DNA of 64,000 bases, from positions 1,984,001-2,048,000 of the forward strand of contig CAVSGO010000007.1 of NCBI GenBank assembly GCA_963727525.1, given 5' to 3'. The position numbers were made by a program, and so were the translations under genes. This DNA comes from an uncultured bacterium (GTDB taxonomy: Bacteria; Krumholzibacteriota; Krumholzibacteriia; LZORAL124-64-63). Shown one piece after another: positions 49,962-56,197 of this stretch. A model generated the notes under the pieces. That model searched no databases and was not told where the DNA came from. It was given only the letters and a program-made list of their open reading frames with translations. Numbering within the stretch: position 1 is the first letter of the stretch; every line of letters begins with the position of its first letter.

Positions 49962-51110
49962 ATGTCACAGGAACGGCTCGTCGCACTGCGCCACGCGTGC
50001 CACGCCCAGCCCGAACTCTCCGGCCACGAGGCCGAGACGGCGGCGCGGGTGCGGGCCTTTCTCGCTGCATATGCACCGGCGGAGATCCTCGACGGCCTGG
50101 GCGGGGGCCACGGCCTGGCCGCGGTCTTCGCGGGCGACGATCCGGCCGGCGGCCCCACGATCGTGCTGCGCGCGGAGCTGGATGCGTTGCCGATCCAGGA
50201 GATCGGTCGTACGGCGTACCGGTCCAATCGAACCGGCGTGGCACATCTCTGCGGGCACGACGGCCACCTCGCCATCCTCTGCGGCGTGGCACCGTGGCTG
50301 CGCGCCCATGAGTTGCGGCGCGGACGGGTGGTATTGCTCGCCCAGCCGGCAGAGGAGACGGGCGAGGGGGCACGCGCCGTGGCTGCTGATCCGCGCTTCC
50401 AGGCCCTGGACGCCGACTGGGCCTTCGCCCTGCACAACCTGCCCGGCTATCCGCTGGGGACGGTGCTGGTGCGCGACGGCGCGTTCACGGCCGGCAGCGT
50501 GGGCGTTGCCATCCGGCTCATGGGTCGCACGGCGCACGCGGCCTATCCCGAGCAGGGAACAAGCCCGGCGCGCGCCATGACCGACCTTGTCACTGGCCTG
50601 GTGACGTTGCCCATCGCCCGGGAAGCGCGCGGCGAACTGGCGCTGGTCACGGTGGTACACGCGCGCCTCGGTGAGGTGACCTTCGGCACCAGTCCGGGCG
50701 AGGCCGAGGTCATGGCCACGTTACGGGCCGATCACGAGCCGGTGCTGGCCGGTCTGCGCGACGAGGCCGCCGCCCTCGCTCACCGCATCGCCGCACGGGA
50801 TGGTCTCGCGGTCGCTGTCGAGTGGGTGGAAGAGTTTCCGGTGACGGTGAACGACGCGCGGGCGACAGCGCACATCGTGGCCGCGGCCGGCGCTGCCGGC
50901 CTCTCCCTGGGCTCACCGAAAGAAAGCCCGTTCCGCTGGTCCGAGGATTTCGGCTGGTTCACCCGCACCATTCCCGGCGCGATGATCGGCCTCGGCGCCG
51001 GCGTGGATCATCCGCCGCTTCACGCGCCGGATTTCGACTTTCCTGACGCGCTCATCGCGCAGGGCGTGCGGCTGTGGGGGGCGCTGATCGCGCAGGTGTG
51101 TTGCTCGTGA
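49962..51110 (+). CDS. M20-family amidohydrolase
   Basis: H..PELSG.E..T, LRAELDALP, HLCGHDGH, QPAEETG, SEDF, LH.PDFDF. Confidence 0.92.
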   Translation: MSQERLVALRHACHAQPELSGHEAETAARVRAFLAAYAPAEILDGLGGGHGLAAVFAGDDPAGGPTIVLRAELDALPIQEIGRTAYRSNRTGVAHLCGHDGHLAILCGVAPWLRAHELRRGRVVLLAQPAEETGEGARAVAADPRFQALDADWAFALHNLPGYPLGTVLVRDGAFTAGSVGVAIRLMGRTAHAAYPEQGTSPARAMTDLVTGLVTLPIAREARGELALVTVVHARLGEVTFGTSPGEAEVMATLRADHEPVLAGLRDEAAALAHRIAARDGLAVAVEWVEEFPVTVNDARATAHIVAAAGAAGLSLGSPKESPFRWSEDFGWFTRTIPGAMIGLGAGVDHPPLHAPDFDFPDALIAQGVRLWGALIAQVCCS

Positions 51111-51117
51111 TGGCGGG

Positions 51118-51744
51118 CTAGCGCCAGGCGCGCACCAGAGAGACCACGCCGCCGAGGGAGAGCAGAATGCCCAGGACGTGCAGAACGCGGTCGAGCAACC
51201 GCGCGCTGACCTTCGTACGAAACATGATGAGCAGCTTCAGCGCCAGGGCGTACCAGGCAACGATACCGAGGGCGACCCCCAGCGCGAACGCCGGTGGCGA
51301 GACGTGGGGATCGAGTCCGAACGTCATGGCCACCGTCAGCAACGCGAGCCAGTTCACCGGGATGGCGAGGTTGACCGCCACGAGCGTGGCTCCCACCCGG
51401 AACTCGTCGCGCAGACGGCGCGCCGGGGCGGTCGCCGCGGTTTCGCCGCCCAGCAAGGTGGTGTGGCGCGTCAGGAAGTACAGTCCCAGCGCCACGAGGA
51501 GCACGCCGCCCAGCGTCCGCGCGACGATGGCGACGGTGGGCCAGCGCATGAGGACACGCGCCGCCCCCTCGATCACGACCAGGCACCACGCCCCCTCGGC
51601 CACGGCTGCGCCGACGGCAAGGGCCAGACCGTTGCCATACCGACCCGCCAGCCCGCGCTGGCATACGAACACCGACACCGCGCCGGCGATGGGCATCGAC
51701 CCCAGCCAGCCCAGCATGACACCGGTCAGCAGGGTCGTCAGCAT
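51118..51744 (-). CDS. LysE/RhtB-family translocator
   Basis: Six hydrophobic segments; G..LG....P.AG.V...V....L..GY..GL....G; F..G......N; overlaps the upstream nucleotidyltransferase by 7 nt. Confidence 0.8.
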   Translation of the reverse strand: MLTTLLTGVMLGWLGSMPIAGAVSVFVCQRGLAGRYGNGLALAVGAAVAEGAWCLVVIEGAARVLMRWPTVAIVARTLGGVLLVALGLYFLTRHTTLLGGETAATAPARRLRDEFRVGATLVAVNLAIPVNWLALLTVAMTFGLDPHVSPPAFALGVALGIVAWYALALKLLIMFRTKVSARLLDRVLHVLGILLSLGGVVSLVRAWR

Positions 51745-52466
51745 GGTGTGGTGAACTCGCGGCGCGCGGCCTCGAGATCTGCGGCCGTGTCGACCTCGCG
51801 ACAGGCCAGCCCCGCCAGGTCGATGGGCGTCACGCCGTGGCCGGACCGGATCAGTTCAACGAAGGCCGCCTCGTAGTACTCGTTCACGCGCTGTTCCTCC
51901 TGCAGACGCCGGCGCAGCACCGGGAACAGATCCGCCACGAAGGCGGGGCCGAAGACCTCGATTCCCACCGACTCCCCCGCGGCGACGACCGGGTCCATCG
52001 CCTTCGAGAGGTCGGCCACCCGACCGTCCGGGCCGAGCCGCACCTTCATCTCCTCCGCCCCGACGGCCCCCTCCGTGCGCAACCCGAGGCGGTTCGCGGC
52101 GGGGTGTGCCAGGAGTCGGTCGATGACGCCCGCGTCGAACACGATGTCGCCGTCGAGGAGCATCATCCCCTCATCCGGCGCGCCGTCGGCGAGCATGAGC
52201 GACCAGGCGTTGTTCGTGGAGGCGAACACGGCATTGCGTGCAAAGGTGACGGCGAGGCGTGGGAAAGCGGCGGCCACGGCATCACGGATCATCGCGCCGC
52301 GATAACCGTCGACGATGGTGAACCGCGTCAGCCCGCGCGAGACGAGGATGCGCAGCGCCCGCAGCAGGATCGCCTCGCCACCGACGTCGAGAAGGCACTT
52401 GGGCCGGTCGTCAGTCAGAGGACGCAGGCGTGTCGCCTGCCCGGCGGCCAGCAGCACGACTCGCAT
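51738..52466 (-). CDS. LicC-like phosphocholine/phospho-amino-alcohol cytidylyltransferase (NTP_transferase)
   Basis: LLAAGQATRLRPLTDDRPKCLL, GY, N..F..TNN..SL, DGD, EEMKV, GES.GI, YYE, EVDT..DL. Confidence 0.85.
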   Translation of the reverse strand: MRVVLLAAGQATRLRPLTDDRPKCLLDVGGEAILLRALRILVSRGLTRFTIVDGYRGAMIRDAVAAAFPRLAVTFARNAVFASTNNAWSLMLADGAPDEGMMLLDGDIVFDAGVIDRLLAHPAANRLGLRTEGAVGAEEMKVRLGPDGRVADLSKAMDPVVAAGESVGIEVFGPAFVADLFPVLRRRLQEEQRVNEYYEAAFVELIRSGHGVTPIDLAGLACREVDTAADLEAARREFTTPC

Positions 52467-53382
52467 GCAGCAATCCCTTCATGAGATCGAGCGGGGCGCG
52501 TTGGTCGGTGGCCTGGTGATCGCTGACAACGCGTAGTCCGAGCGCGACGATCCCCCAGCTCGTCCCAAAGACGAGGGCGACCCAGACATACCACGCCGGC
52601 TTGGCGAGCACGCCGGCGAGCATGATGAGCGACAGGTGCATGGTCGGCCCCATGAGCACAGCCATGCGCAGCGCGGGCAGACGGCGCCGCTTCCAGGCCG
52701 CGAGCGACTCGTCCTGCGGCAAGGCGTTCAGGGCGCAAGGTCCCGAATACCAGAGTCCGATATATGTCGCGTAGAGATGCACCAGCGCGCGCTCGGCGTG
52801 ATGGGTTCCCTCCACGCGCCAGACCTCGGCCTGCGCTCGCAATCCCAGCAGTTCCTCGCGCGGATCGCGCCGGCGCCCGTAGACGCGTTCGAGCCATTCG
52901 TTGCGGAAACGGTCGACCCGCGCGCTCCACCAGGCGAAGCTGATGCCGGCGGGTACGCCGAAGAGCCAGGCGAAACGCACGTCGCCCGTCTGCGTGGCGA
53001 TCCCGTGCAGAAGGCAGATCACGAGCGTGGCCTGGATCGTGTAGTCGGCCAGTCCATCGAGGATATACCCCACGAGCGAGCCGGACCCGCGCACGCGCGC
53101 GAGCATGCCGTCGACACAGTCGAGCACATTGGTGAGAAAGAGCAGGATGGCACCCGCCATGAGCATCGTGGGCGTGCCTTGCCAGAAACACCACGCCGAG
53201 GCGAGGCCGGGAAGGAGGCCCGCAAGGGTCACCTGATTCGGCGTGATGGCGGTGGGCGCCAGGATCTTGACCAGGACGAACGCCAGCGGACGGTACACGA
53301 CCAGGTCCAGCGGCTCCTCGAGCTCGGGCGCCTTGAGCATGGCCTCGTACTCGGCGACCCAGCGACGCCAGAACGACATCAC
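52411..53382 (-). CDS. CDP-alcohol phosphotransferase
   Basis: Complete signature D-x2-DG-x2-AR-x8-G-x3-D-x3-D (DCVDGMLARVRGSGSLVGYILDGLAD), TPNQVT, multiple TMs. Confidence 0.92.
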   Translation of the reverse strand: MMSFWRRWVAEYEAMLKAPELEEPLDLVVYRPLAFVLVKILAPTAITPNQVTLAGLLPGLASAWCFWQGTPTMLMAGAILLFLTNVLDCVDGMLARVRGSGSLVGYILDGLADYTIQATLVICLLHGIATQTGDVRFAWLFGVPAGISFAWWSARVDRFRNEWLERVYGRRRDPREELLGLRAQAEVWRVEGTHHAERALVHLYATYIGLWYSGPCALNALPQDESLAAWKRRRLPALRMAVLMGPTMHLSLIMLAGVLAKPAWYVWVALVFGTSWGIVALGLRVVSDHQATDQRAPLDLMKGLLHASRAAGRRAGDTPASSD

Positions 53383-54455
53383 GCGGCGCCTCCGGCCACG
53401 GCGTGGCGCACGGCAGGCATGGCCATGGCCTCCCCGATCGCAGTGAGCAGCCTCTCGTTCTCCGTCTCGGTGCCGAGACTGATACGCGCGTGGTTCAGAA
53501 ACGCCGGCTCGGTGAAGAACTTCACGATGAGGCCCTGCGCGTCGAGTTCACGCTTGAGCAGCGGCATCACCGCGGCCGGAAACTTCACGAGCACGAAATT
53601 CGCCTCGCTCTGGTAAATCTCGCACCCCGGACACGACCGGAACAGTTCGTAGAATCGCCGCCGGTCGCTCGCCATGCGGTGGGCGATGTCCTCGTAGTAG
53701 AGCGGGCTATCGAGCGCCGCGAGGGCGAGACGCTCGGAGAGGCGATTGTAACCGAGGTTGCGCGCGCAGAACTTCTGGAATGTCCCCAGACCACGGCCGG
53801 CGATGCCATAACCGATGCGCACACCCGCCAGCGCGTACAGCTTGCTGAAGGTGCGCATGATCAGCAGGTTGTCATAGCGATCGGTGAGGTCGCCGAAGTC
53901 GTCCAACTCGCCCGGCCTGAGGCCGAAGTATGCCTGGTCGAGCACGAACGGCACGTCGCGATAGACGTCGAGGAGTCGCAGCAGATCGGCGCGGCTCAGG
54001 ACGTTGCCGGTGGGATTGTTCGGCGATGCGACGAGGACGAGAGCGGGATTCGCCGCTTCGCGCAGCCTCATGAGCGCATCGATGTCGTACTCGTAGTGAG
54101 CCGCGGTCGCGCACAGCGGATACTCGACGGTCACGCCCCCCACCTCGTCGGCCACGGCCCGGTAGTACCACCAGGACGCGGACGGAATGAGGATAGACTG
54201 TCCGGCCGCGACGAAGTGGTGCACCGCTTCCTTGAGCAGGTCCTCGCATCCGTAGCCGAGGATGATCCTCGGCTCGTCGACGCCATGGTCCCGAGCGAGG
54301 CGCGTCGATAGTTCACTGTACACGCCCTGCTTGAAAGCGCGGGTGTAATTGAACAGCAGTTCCGGCTCGGCGCCTTGCAGCACGTCGAAGCAAGCCGGTG
54401 CAGGGCCGTAACGGTTCTCGTTGCGATCGAAAAGAACGACGGTCGACGCTGGCAT
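53379..54455 (-). CDS. PLP-dependent class I/II (HisC/CobD-fold) aminotransferase or decarboxylase
   Basis: NEN..G, SPNNPTG, DQAY, RTFSKLYALAGVRIGY (PLP Lys), S.ANF, RISLG; GAGGT RBS. Confidence 0.88.
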   Translation of the reverse strand: MPASTVVLFDRNENRYGPAPACFDVLQGAEPELLFNYTRAFKQGVYSELSTRLARDHGVDEPRIILGYGCEDLLKEAVHHFVAAGQSILIPSASWWYYRAVADEVGGVTVEYPLCATAAHYEYDIDALMRLREAANPALVLVASPNNPTGNVLSRADLLRLLDVYRDVPFVLDQAYFGLRPGELDDFGDLTDRYDNLLIMRTFSKLYALAGVRIGYGIAGRGLGTFQKFCARNLGYNRLSERLALAALDSPLYYEDIAHRMASDRRRFYELFRSCPGCEIYQSEANFVLVKFPAAVMPLLKRELDAQGLIVKFFTEPAFLNHARISLGTETENERLLTAIGEAMAMPAVRHAVAGGAA

Positions 54456-54610
54456 GATTGACCTCATCGCCGCGAGGGCGGATGTTTGGCCACGGCACGA
54501 GACCCGCGCACGAAGTTCACCATCGCGGGTCCGAAGTCGCTTCCGAGGCCGGGTCCAACACCTGAACCGCCATGAAGTTGCAAGGGCGCGCCGGAAATTT
54601 CATCAAAAAA

Positions 54611-54639
54611 AAATTACTGGCTGCCAATCGCACGGGCAA
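54611..54639 (-). promoter_or_regulatory. Putative sigma70 promoter TTGCCC-N17-TAATTT with adjacent T9 tract
   Basis: 17-nt spacer; AT-rich patch about 155 nt upstream of the PLP-enzyme operon; A9 on the + strand at 54605-54613. Confidence 0.4.
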
Positions 54640-54788
54640 TCTCTTCCGATCCTTGCAAGTTCCGCGCCCACCTGGTCGCAATGACGCACCGGCGCACGTC
54701 GGCAAGCGGCACGCCGCCGAAGCACGTAAATCCCATTAGTAAAATCTGTTATGGATAGCGACGGCGGGCGCAGACCCCGAAACGGCGG

Positions 54789-54819
54789 CGAGCCGGCCGG
54801 TCCGCCGCCGGCCGGTTCG
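54789..54819 (-). terminator. 12-bp hairpin downstream of the DUF2239 gene
   Basis: CGAGCCGGCCGG/CCGGCCGGTTCG with one mismatch; no clear U tract. Confidence 0.4.
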
Positions 54820-54880
54820 ACGGATGATCCGGTCGCCAGGCACGACGCGCGCGAGGCCGCTGCGCCGCTGCGGCGCGCGC

Positions 54881-55588: not shown

Positions 55589-56197
55589 TCATTCCTCGTC
55601 GGGATAGAGAAACCCCAGGCAGACCGGACACAACCCGTGGCTGATCTGGAGACCGTGGTCGTTCAGCCAGGACGGGATCCAGTCCCAGCGCTGCGGCTGC
55701 GTGCGGTTGAGGAAGCGCCGGCAGGTGGCGCACTGGCAGACCACGCCGTCACGATCCTGGTAGACGTCGGGCGCGGGTGCGCAGGGGCGGTGGGTGACGG
55801 GATCGTGCGTGTGCTCGACGCGCAGGGAGTTCACGACAAGCAGTCCTTCGCGCTCGCCCAGGGGATACGCGGTCTGGCGAAACAGTCGGTAGGTCCGGTC
55901 GCTGGAGCACTCGTAGTCGTGGGACCAGGGGTCATCGCCACGCAGGCAGTTGTGGTAGGCGTCGCGATAAAATGTCAACAGCGGCTCCGGCAACGCGTCG
56001 GCGATGCTCCGGCCGAGGGCCCAGCGGTGCGTGATCGCCGGCTCGCCGCCGTTCTCGCGGGCAAAGCGGTACCACGCGGGATTCACCCAGGCGAGCGTGA
56101 GATCGGGCCATAGTCCATAGGCGACGCCGTCTTGCTTCTCGAGGTCTCCCAGGTCGAAACCGCGTAGCAGGACCTGGAAATCGCGTCCCGTCATCAT
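55589..56197 (-). CDS. Hypothetical protein: PAS-like N-terminus and C-terminal CxxC...SHGxCxxC metal-binding motif
   Basis: Y.L..DLTLAWVNPAW..FA..NG...LGRSI; YECSS; CATCRR...W.W...ISHGLCPVC. Confidence 0.7.
   Translation of the reverse strand: MMTGRDFQVLLRGFDLGDLEKQDGVAYGLWPDLTLAWVNPAWYRFARENGGEPAITHRWALGRSIADALPEPLLTFYRDAYHNCLRGDDPWSHDYECSSDRTYRLFRQTAYPLGEREGLLVVNSLRVEHTHDPVTHRPCAPAPDVYQDRDGVVCQCATCRRFLNRTQPQRWDWIPSWLNDHGLQISHGLCPVCLGFLYPDEE

Follow-up and report, generated by a model that had tools for sequence, protein, structure and literature searches.

In the Pnt phosphonolipid clusters, as outlined in the available text of two reports, genes for phosphoenolpyruvate (PEP) mutase, phosphonopyruvate decarboxylase, 2-aminoethylphosphonate (AEP) transaminase, the cytidylyltransferase PntC and a cytidine diphosphate (CDP)-alcohol transferase stand together (PMC6697681, PMC8942020). 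The subject of this report is a four-gene cassette of partly similar design from an uncultured member of the Krumholzibacteriota, located in a 64,000-nucleotide stretch of its genome (assembly GCA_963727525.1, contig CAVSGO010000007.1, positions 1,984,001 to 2,048,000; hereafter the window). Its genes encode a HisC/CobD-fold pyridoxal 5′-phosphate (PLP) enzyme, a CDP-alcohol phosphotransferase (PT), a LicC/PntC-like nucleotidyltransferase (NT) and a LysE-superfamily membrane protein. As in the Pnt clusters, a small amino-alkyl phosphate or phosphonate would be activated with cytidine monophosphate (CMP) by a LicC-like NT and transferred by a CDP-alcohol-type PT. The best solved relative of the cassette NT is PntC, and a phosphonate cluster in Flavobacteriaceae (L060; loci are numbered throughout) has a sister PT, a LysE-family gene and an epimerase gene. 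In contrast to the Pnt clusters, neither the cassette locus nor its genome has a PEP mutase or a phosphonopyruvate decarboxylase, and a single HisC-fold class I/II PLP enzyme takes the place of three enzymes, whereas the transaminase Tde1415 belongs to class V. The cassette product would also be a phosphate ester rather than a C-P compound.

A second relevant system is the alternative inositol-lipid cluster of the Bacteroides vulgatus type, which its authors, in the accessible part of their report, describe as functionally unconfirmed (PMC9246714). Like the cassette, it combines an NT with a PT in Kennedy-like fashion, in Bacteroidota and in connection with sphingolipid headgroups. However, its supplier is MIPS and it includes LPG_synthase_TM and HAD proteins, whereas the cassette has a HisC-like PLP supplier, a LysE protein and a PT from another clade. 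The IPCT/DIPPS proteins and AF2299 of hyperthermophiles also place an NT and a PT in series, sometimes as fusions, and AF2299 is the closest solved relative of the cassette PT. Those systems make a soluble inositol phosphodiester and their fusions run NT-PT, whereas fusions in the cassette family run PT-NT and its PT has an additional stretch of about 80 amino acids specific to the family.

The eukaryotic CDP-ethanolamine (Kennedy) pathway, the Drosophila ceramide phosphoethanolamine synthase, which is a CDP-alcohol phosphotransferase, and the Treponema LicCA/CPT phosphatidylcholine route resemble the cassette in that a PF01066 enzyme moves a CDP-amino alcohol group to diacylglycerol or ceramide. 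Unlike the Kennedy routes, the cassette has no ethanolamine or choline kinase, its cytidylyltransferase is of the LicC type (PF12804/PF00483) rather than PF01467, and its PLP enzyme would provide a de novo supply. Kinase-free production of both plausible amino-alcohol phosphates by PLP enzymes is described for Campylobacter jejuni, in which, by the portion of the report at hand, Cj1436 converts serine phosphate to ethanolamine phosphate and Cj1437 converts dihydroxyacetone phosphate (DHAP) to serinol phosphate (PMC12409886). The comparison is with the functions described there, and in contrast to the cassette, the same account has these products amidating capsular glucuronic acid without CDP activation. 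New with respect to known CDP-alcohol pathways are supply by a HisC-fold enzyme, partnership with a LysE protein and placement within ceramide operons. No description of the gene combination was found in the literature searched, which left out most subscription journals and all supplements, and neither the cassette PLP enzyme nor the PT is represented by a model in NCBIfam release 20.

Proposed pathway

On balance we consider it probable that the four genes form a self-contained membrane-lipid headgroup cassette with Kennedy-like organization; the chemistry of every step is inferred, whereas gene order, conservation, motifs, family assignment and co-occurrence are direct observations. Specifically, the PLP enzyme would convert a central phosphorylated metabolite to an amino-alcohol phosphate, and because its substrate would already carry the phosphate, a kinase would not be needed. 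The NT would join this product to CMP, and the membrane PT would then move the phospho-amino alcohol from the resulting CDP-amino alcohol onto a lipid alcohol, releasing CMP. This transfer could proceed directly to ceramide. Alternatively, the group could pass first to diacylglycerol and then to ceramide through a sphingomyelin-synthase-like PAP2_3/PAP2_C enzyme of the Spt operon, a protein that by Pfam family resembles sphingomyelin and inositol phosphorylceramide (IPC) synthases. Finally, the LysE-type protein may assist the PT or act on the lipid that the PT makes, perhaps as a translocator of this lipid or as a PT partner. A first-pass annotation of the window had already proposed Kennedy-like logic without a LicA-type kinase, a view supported by the conservation of the PLP-PT-NT set, by the PntC/LicC-like character of the NT and by the lack of Psd and PEP mutase in the genome.

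Taken as a whole, the cassette might represent a new route to an amino-phospho-sphingolipid, be it ceramide phosphoethanolamine or a novel lipid, ceramide phosphoserinol, with a new PLP supplier, a LysE protein as translocator or PT partner, and modules for a phosphate ester, a phosphonate or glycerol phosphate that can be exchanged; we offer this complete picture tentatively. Bacteroidota have ceramide phosphoethanolamine among their major lipids, according to the available sections of two reports (PMC12132519, PMC9246714). The bacterial genes that attach phospho-amino-alcohol headgroups to sphingolipids are largely unassigned, and the cassette is a concrete and testable candidate that is compact and kinase-free and lends itself to heterologous expression. 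Its composition further suggests that a LysE-family protein can have a function connected with lipids, and as a marker the cassette could help to predict what the membranes of uncultured Krumholzibacteriota, Acidobacteriota, Ignavibacteriota and Bacteroidota contain.

Conservation of the cassette

A profile built from 17 PT homologues recovered 80 loci from contigs representing one genome per species, and the gene content of these loci was counted by iterated searches over all of their open reading frames (ORFs). The PLP, PT and NT genes are present on the same strand, in the order PLP-PT-NT, in 39 of the 80. Incomplete combinations comprise PLP and PT only (four loci) or PT and NT only (six loci), several of them ending at contig edges, and in the other 31 loci the PT has neither partner. 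A LysE-family gene adjoins 19 of the 39 complete cassettes; in the Krumholzibacteriota, Bacteroidales and Saprospiraceae loci it follows the NT gene, and in L046, L048, L049 and L058 it precedes the PLP gene. The four families named in the first-pass annotation therefore do co-occur, and the order conserved across several phyla bears out its view of the genes as one operon-like functional unit.

The metagenome-assembled genomes (MAGs) that carry the cassette are labeled Krumholzibacteriota, Eisenbacteria, Acidobacteriota, Aminicenantes, Ignavibacteriota and Bacteroidota, with single representatives from Chromatiales and Eubacteriales. Within the window's phylum the PT is patchy, being present in 15 of 121 sampled genomes. 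In all six PT-positive genomes of this phylum that were examined the PLP-PT-NT order is kept, with LysE in five, while the flanking genes vary. Because the order is retained and the flanks differ, the cassette is a real unit that is able to move between genomic contexts. A search of 1.84 billion representative proteins yielded 456 representatives of the PT family (E<=1e-30), two of which (P0245 and P0351) are PT-NT fusions.

Loci of an Ignavibacteria type (L023, L025, L026, L031, L035 and L061) carry a DUF192 gene and a polyphosphate kinase 1 gene between the PLP gene and the PT-NT pair. In L023 and L031, the only two of these loci with annotated neighbors, a rhomboid-family gene follows the NT gene where LysE would be.

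The PLP enzyme

The PLP enzyme of the window scores 200.4 bits on the hisC model TIGR01141 and 129.1 bits on the CobD model TIGR01140, under the respective cut-offs of 276.55 and 290.55. The first-pass annotation had allowed for a true HisC that would be the genome's only one; instead, a separate true hisC is located elsewhere in the genome (347.6 bits). Moreover, three complete Bacteroidales chromosomes that carry a cassette PLP gene have neither a hisD nor a hisC over cut-off.

Phylogenetic comparison with HisC and CobD leads to the same result. The tree comprises 62 sequences: the window's enzyme and 43 other cassette enzymes, three HisC proteins over cut-off, eight CobD-like Bacteroidales proteins (212-276 bits, just below cut-off), one fused Polyangiaceae protein and, as outgroup, six other aminotransferases of the window's genome. 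Over-long N-termini were trimmed and duplicate loci removed, and the references are HisC and CobD-like proteins only. All 44 cassette enzymes form one clade, with a support of 100 in the Shimodaira-Hasegawa-like approximate likelihood ratio test (SH-aLRT) and a stem of 0.96. This clade falls outside a weakly supported (89) group of HisC and CobD-like proteins, and outside the clade of seven CobD-like Bacteroidales proteins that score 246-276 bits. The separation that the earlier annotation had suggested looking for is thus evident.

Residues of the active site show where the family agrees with HisC and where it departs from it. The PLP-binding set of the window's enzyme consists of Y41, N151, D177, Y180, S208, K209, R217 and R328, and of these K209, D177, N151, Y180, Y41, R217 and R328 align with K214, D184, N157, Y187, Y55, R222 and R335 of E. 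coli HisC. We take the Tyr20 arm, Asp85, Tyr110, Tyr243 and Arg322 of E. coli HisC to be residues of its site for the substrate, histidinol phosphate. Relative to that protein, Asp85 is replaced by Glu, Tyr110 by Trp, Tyr243 by Leu and Arg322 by Lys, each replacement being shared by 98% or more of the 44 sequences in the family, and the Trp at the Tyr110 site belongs to an invariant WWYY motif. The N-terminal arm is absent, since the match to the hisC profile begins at model position 21. In addition, the family has new residues at R236, R242, E245 and Y257/Y258 that are invariant or nearly so.

The PLP enzyme is therefore a distinct family, neither HisC nor CobD, and the cassette enzymes constitute a third functional lineage in the HisC/CobD group that public pipelines misname. 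Public names for the family are generic, and the label given to the protein by these pipelines is histidinol-phosphate aminotransferase. This label, together with the fact that hisC and CobD are the best curated models, could be taken to mean that the enzyme is a HisC, a CobD or an AEP transaminase of ordinary histidine, cobamide or phosphonate metabolism whose adjacency to the other genes is fortuitous. We find this explanation extremely improbable, because the enzyme is below both curated cut-offs and in its own clade, a true hisC exists elsewhere, some carriers lack hisD, no match to PEP mutase (TIGR02320) occurs in the window's genome, which is estimated to be 96.7% complete, and no his or cob genes are adjacent. 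Instead, we propose that the PLP enzyme makes an amino-alcohol phosphate, whether by decarboxylase or by aminotransferase chemistry, a choice that cannot be read from its sequence.

The nucleotidyltransferase

The NT had been assigned to the LicC type, and its nearest relatives are indeed cytidylyltransferases for small amino-alkyl phosphates and phosphonates, PntC and LicC. Among solved proteins the Treponema PntC-AEP transaminase (6pd1, 1.6e-10) matches it best, followed by LicC (1jyk, 9.8e-07), which ranks ahead of IPCT (2xme, 8.5e-04). The motifs LAAGQATRLRP, NN.WSL, D105-x-D107 and E.DT are retained, and conservation across 40 cassette NTs holds for LAAGQATRLRP, D105-x-D107, E.DT and a YE motif at 198-199. 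In the Treponema PntC, Glu104 and Glu196 contact the amine of AEP (PMC6697681). D105 of the cassette NT aligns with Glu104 of this protein (Tde-PntC), and the YE motif matches Glu196 by spacing, not by structure. We propose on the basis of these similarities that the NT is a CTP:amino-alcohol-phosphate cytidylyltransferase.

The NT could instead be an inositol-1-phosphate cytidylyltransferase that feeds the synthesis of an inositol lipid by the PT, as proposed for the cluster of the Bacteroides vulgatus type, with the PLP gene as a passenger. MIPS is present in the window's genome, the NT matches the IPCT/DIPPS model weakly (43 bits), and the best curated matches of the PT are inositol-phosphate-type synthases. 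However, MIPS lies 1.17 Mb away from the cassette, and the PLP gene stays beside PT and NT in 39 loci from several phyla, with overlapping frames. The E-values given above place PntC and LicC before IPCT, two Bacteroidales loci (L024 and L063) hold the NT/PT/HAD set of the vulgatus type as a separate second cluster with a PT from another clade, and the window's genome has a separate PIPS-like PT. A CDP-inositol pathway is accordingly highly improbable.

The phosphotransferase and the LysE-family protein

The PT motif D87xxD90G91xxA94R95x8G104xxxD108xxxD112 is invariant in all 17 aligned homologues. Catalytic motifs that had been reported as intact in the window are thus confirmed by alignment for the PLP enzyme, the PT and the NT. 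Hydropathy predicts about six transmembrane (TM) segments in the PT, and at residues 156-238 the family keeps a hydrophilic insertion roughly 80 residues long. Among solved proteins its best relative is AF2299 (4o6m, 4.2e-16), followed by the mycobacterial PIP synthase and CHPT1/CEPT1. Its scores are under the cut-off (in brackets) of every curated equivalog: 25.5 for pgsA (109), 21.6 for pssA (107), 37.3 for PIPS (170) and 51.1 for AIPS (180).

LysE-family proteins are known as exporters of small molecules such as amino acids, and the LysE protein of the cassette had been put forward as a possible exporter of surplus amino alcohol. It is predicted to have six hydrophobic TM segments and has no curated subfamily match in NCBIfam. 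Proteins of this family accompany the PT in L060, which has a phosphonate module, and in L065, which has a TagD-like cytidylyltransferase, and neither of these loci has the PLP enzyme, so that a LysE protein is found with the PT across all three types of headgroup module. This association points to a function connected with the PT reaction or with the lipid product, and export of an amino alcohol is unlikely.

The same observations bear on the possibility that the cassette makes a soluble phosphodiester by the logic of di-myo-inositol-phosphate synthesis, with the PT coupling the CDP-amino alcohol either with a small polyol or with another amino-alcohol phosphate, and with LysE exporting the product. 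The kinship of the PT with AF2299 and the DIPPS/AIPS/PIPS group, the exporter function of LysE proteins and the resemblance of the NT and PT pairing, and of its reverse-order fusion, to IPCT/DIPPS would all fit such a scheme. However, the neighbors of the cassette are lipid genes (Spt, GNAT, CerR-like epimerase and PAP2), the sister PT in L060 belongs to a cluster of phosphonolipid type, LysE travels with the PT across three headgroup modules, and the MAG labels of carriers indicate ordinary mesophilic habitats. A soluble product is therefore quite improbable.

Headgroup modules

The composition of L060 bears on the headgroup. Its genes occur in the order GNAT, epimerase, LysE, cytidylyltransferase-PEP mutase fusion, phosphonopyruvate decarboxylase, cytidylyltransferase-AEP transaminase fusion and PT, and both PEP mutase (415 bits) and phosphonopyruvate decarboxylase (495 bits) score over cut-off. 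In a tree of 85 PTs, the L060 protein is sister (SH-aLRT 93) to the PT of L058, a Flavobacteriaceae cassette with the order epimerase-LysE-PLP-PT-NT. The two loci share 59% identity in the PT, 56% in the epimerase and 49% in the LysE protein. By these relationships, one chassis of PT, LysE and epimerase takes either a phosphonate module or the PLP and NT pair, and the headgroup of the cassette is by this exchange probably a close analogue of AEP.

For the product of the PLP enzyme, our tentative first choice is phosphoethanolamine, formed by decarboxylation of phosphoserine. It is favored by the exchange with AEP, by the abundance of ceramide phosphoethanolamine in Bacteroidota and by the universal supply of phosphoserine. 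SerC is present in the window's genome, is clear in four of five other carriers and gives a weak match in the fifth, and this near-universal presence in the genomes checked means that phosphoserine supply does not discriminate between headgroups. Serinol phosphate, formed by transamination of DHAP, is a second choice of almost equal probability. The HisC-like core of the PLP enzyme and an NT/HisC-like fusion in another locus (L077) favor it, since both speak for transamination over phosphoserine decarboxylation. The remaining probability falls to another small amino-alkyl phosphate.

Several related loci show further combinations of these genes. In a Polyangiaceae MAG (L077:7001-10976), a distant PT and NT are followed by a 638-amino-acid fusion of an IPCT-like NT with a HisC-like domain, which is a separate NT-aminotransferase fusion of parallel logic. 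Directly downstream of the cassette in L024 (L024:9450-14324) and L063 are genes for an NT, a TetR protein, an ATP-grasp-like protein, a second PT, an LPG_synthase_TM protein and a HAD hydrolase. The second PT of these loci shares a separate PT clade with Tannerellaceae loci that have a small cytidylyltransferase, an SDR protein and an acyltransferase. In the Parabacteroides and other Tannerellaceae arrays (L088:138-5119, L075, L079, L081 and L083-L086), the genes are PgpA, PdxA, TagD-like cytidylyltransferase, SDR, PT and OlsF/GlsA-like acyltransferase. Phosphoglycerol dihydroceramide is a lipid of the Tannerellaceae/Parabacteroides group, and this array is a candidate for its synthesis. The NT, LPG_synthase_TM and HAD genes of the second set in L024 and L063 resemble the unconfirmed alternative inositol-lipid cluster as set out in the available text of PMC9246714.

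Association with sphingolipid synthesis

Sphingolipid synthesis is the strongest context signal for the cassette. The ceramide enzymes of bacteria are, in the accessible part of one report, Spt, the acyltransferase bCerS and the NDUFA9-like reductase CerR (PMC11087976). Two related complete Bacteroidales chromosomes (L044 and L047) carry on one strand the series Spt-GNAT-GNAT-epimerase-PLP-PT-NT-LysE, in which Spt scores 699 bits, above the curated cut-off of 640 (NF047600). Presumably bCerS is itself a GNAT. In uncultured Bacteroidales (L024 and L063) the order is Spt-GNAT-GNAT-PLP-PT-NT-LysE, and in Saprospiraceae (L020 and L034) genes for an epimerase, a GNAT, Spt and PAP2_C are placed divergently beside the cassette. 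Together with L058, the cassette is thus found in or beside ceramide-synthesis genes in four lineages of Bacteroidota. The rejected idea that a transaldolase and a glutaminase gene in L044 and L047 hint at DHAP and glutamate chemistry concerns these same loci; in L044 (L044:9434-11370) the two genes follow LysE on the same strand, but the pattern is confined to one lineage and is probably coincidental.

The window's genome has a comparable set on a contig other than that of the cassette (C5:517184-521575, plus strand; L112 and L115). Here, contiguous genes encode an Spt-like protein of 577 bits (under the NF047600 cut-off), a GNAT-containing protein of 391 amino acids, an NAD-epimerase-family protein of 383 and a PAP2_3/PAP2_C protein of 345. 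This is likely a ceramide operon with a headgroup transferase like sphingomyelin or IPC synthase. In the sample of the window's phylum, an Spt-like gene (E<=1e-130) is present in 50 of 121 genomes, and the PT occurs in 15 of the 50 Spt-positive genomes as compared to none of the 71 that are Spt-negative. Likewise, 42 of 45 other genomes with a complete or partial cassette have an Spt-like match of at least 465 bits. The first-pass annotation had listed diacylglycerol, ceramide or a polyol as acceptors; ceramide, there only one option among several, now has the strongest contextual signal, and a sphingolipid end product appears fairly likely.

Alternatively, the cassette might serve glycerolipids only, making phosphatidylethanolamine or another diacylglycerol aminophospholipid without PssA or Psd and with no connection to sphingolipids. 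The genome of the window lacks Psd and encodes just two PF01066 proteins, the second of which (C5:487969-488430; L114:1841-2512, minus strand) is PIP/AIP-synthase-like with 136-142 bits, under the cut-offs, and scores 27.7 on pgsA. Within the PF01066 family, this genome yielded neither a PgsA nor a PssA equivalog; the PLD-family (E. coli-type) PssA was not searched for. Psd is present in three of the 121 phylum genomes and in none of the 15 that have the PT, the solved relatives of the PT include the diacylglycerol-using CHPT1/CEPT1, and 32 of the 39 complete cassette loci have no ceramide gene inside the locus. Set against these points are the position of the cassette in or beside Spt/GNAT/epimerase arrays in the four Bacteroidota lineages, the confinement of the PT to Spt-positive genomes of the window's phylum and the presence of Psd in all five carriers tested outside this phylum. 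We consider a route restricted to glycerolipids unlikely. A test of mutual exclusion between Psd and the cassette carries no information, since the phylum as a whole hardly has Psd and the five other carriers all have it. With Psd in so few of its genomes, the membrane lipids of the window's phylum are likely unusual.

A number of observations weigh against an amine-specific cassette directed to ceramide. The cassette adjoins sphingolipid genes in only seven of the 39 complete loci. The background of Spt-like genes can be high, as in the phylum of an Ignavibacteria-labeled carrier (G004), where 75 of 101 genomes have one, a frequency at which a second test of association would carry little weight, and the sub-cut-off Spt-like matches in Bacteroidota could include sulfonolipid enzymes. 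The co-occurrence counts include related genomes, and are thus not independent; the window's phylum has only two families with both traits. Psd was present in each of the five Bacteroidales and Ignavibacteria carrier genomes tested, so a second route to ethanolamine lipids is not obviously needed there. The available text of one report places CerR in the periplasm of Caulobacter (PMC11087976), which complicates direct transfer from a cytoplasmic CDP donor to finished ceramide and makes the two-step route, or action on unreduced ceramide, worth considering. With respect to the headgroup, the PT of L065, which pairs with LysE and the TagD-like cytidylyltransferase (121 bits, cut-off 165), is nested in the cassette clade, and this clade is therefore not strictly amine-specific. 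The presence of MIPS makes CDP-inositol possible on grounds of supply. Finally, the core of the PLP enzyme sides with HisC, not with the CobD-like set, at E. coli positions 210, 211, 213, 219 and 339, and the HisC-like domain of L077 is above the hisC cut-off at 307 bits.

Arrangement of the locus

The four minus-strand genes of the window (Table 1) were said to overlap by 4, 56 and 7 nucleotides, and the ORF list gives exactly these values. The 56-nucleotide overlap of PT and NT is also present in the closest relatives, L009 and L011. All Pfam assignments are above their own cut-offs: PF00155, 133 bits; PF01066, 43.2 (cut-off 22); PF12804, 36; PF00483, 29; and PF01810, 38.8 (cut-off 25.6).

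Table 1. Features of the headgroup cassette, with positions given in the window
Feature	Coordinates	Strand	Description
HisC/CobD-fold PLP enzyme gene	53379..54467	-	362 aa; public gene call begins four codons later (358 aa)
CDP-alcohol phosphotransferase (PT) gene	52411..53382	-	323 aa; PF01066
LicC/PntC-like nucleotidyltransferase (NT) gene	51738..52466	-	242 aa; PF12804 + PF00483
LysE-superfamily membrane protein gene	51118..51744	-	208 aa; PF01810
Upstream intergenic region/leader	54468..54880	-	413 nt; GC dip; T9 run at 54605-54613

The cassette is bounded downstream by a convergent M20 peptidase gene with its end at 51110, and upstream by the intergenic region. Flanking genes in the window comprise DUF2239, a 202-amino-acid ORF without family, phosphomannomutase, M20 amidohydrolase and YaiI, and none of these five recurs among the 80 loci. 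As originally noted, no his, cob or lic genes adjoin the cassette in the window, as judged by Pfam and NCBIfam annotation of the neighbors. The 202-amino-acid ORF (55589-56197, minus strand), which is rich in Cys and Trp and lies between the phosphomannomutase and DUF2239 genes, has no match in Pfam or NCBIfam.

The genes were also said to have their own AT-rich promoter. The composition agrees, in that GC content falls to 0.59 at 54450-54749 from 0.63-0.77 in the surroundings and the T9 run lies within this dip, whereas a scan of the upstream region for sigma-70 promoters and terminators gave nothing on the minus (coding) strand. A separate promoter is thus plausible. An Rfam scan of the leader returned only a sub-threshold small RNA match (24.7 bits, gathering score 70), and comparison of the upstream regions of nine relatives revealed no obvious common motif. 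Three loci from the window's phylum (L116, L120 and L121) have a GC-rich hairpin and a T-run in the leader about 45 nucleotides upstream of the PLP start, and the window's leader has only a weak stem ahead of its T9 run. The hairpin and T-run may act as an attenuator or may terminate transcription of the gene before the cassette. Several relatives keep the C-terminal tail of the PT (window 52411-52466; columns 301-328 of the alignment of 17 homologues), perhaps because this stretch overlaps the start of the NT gene.

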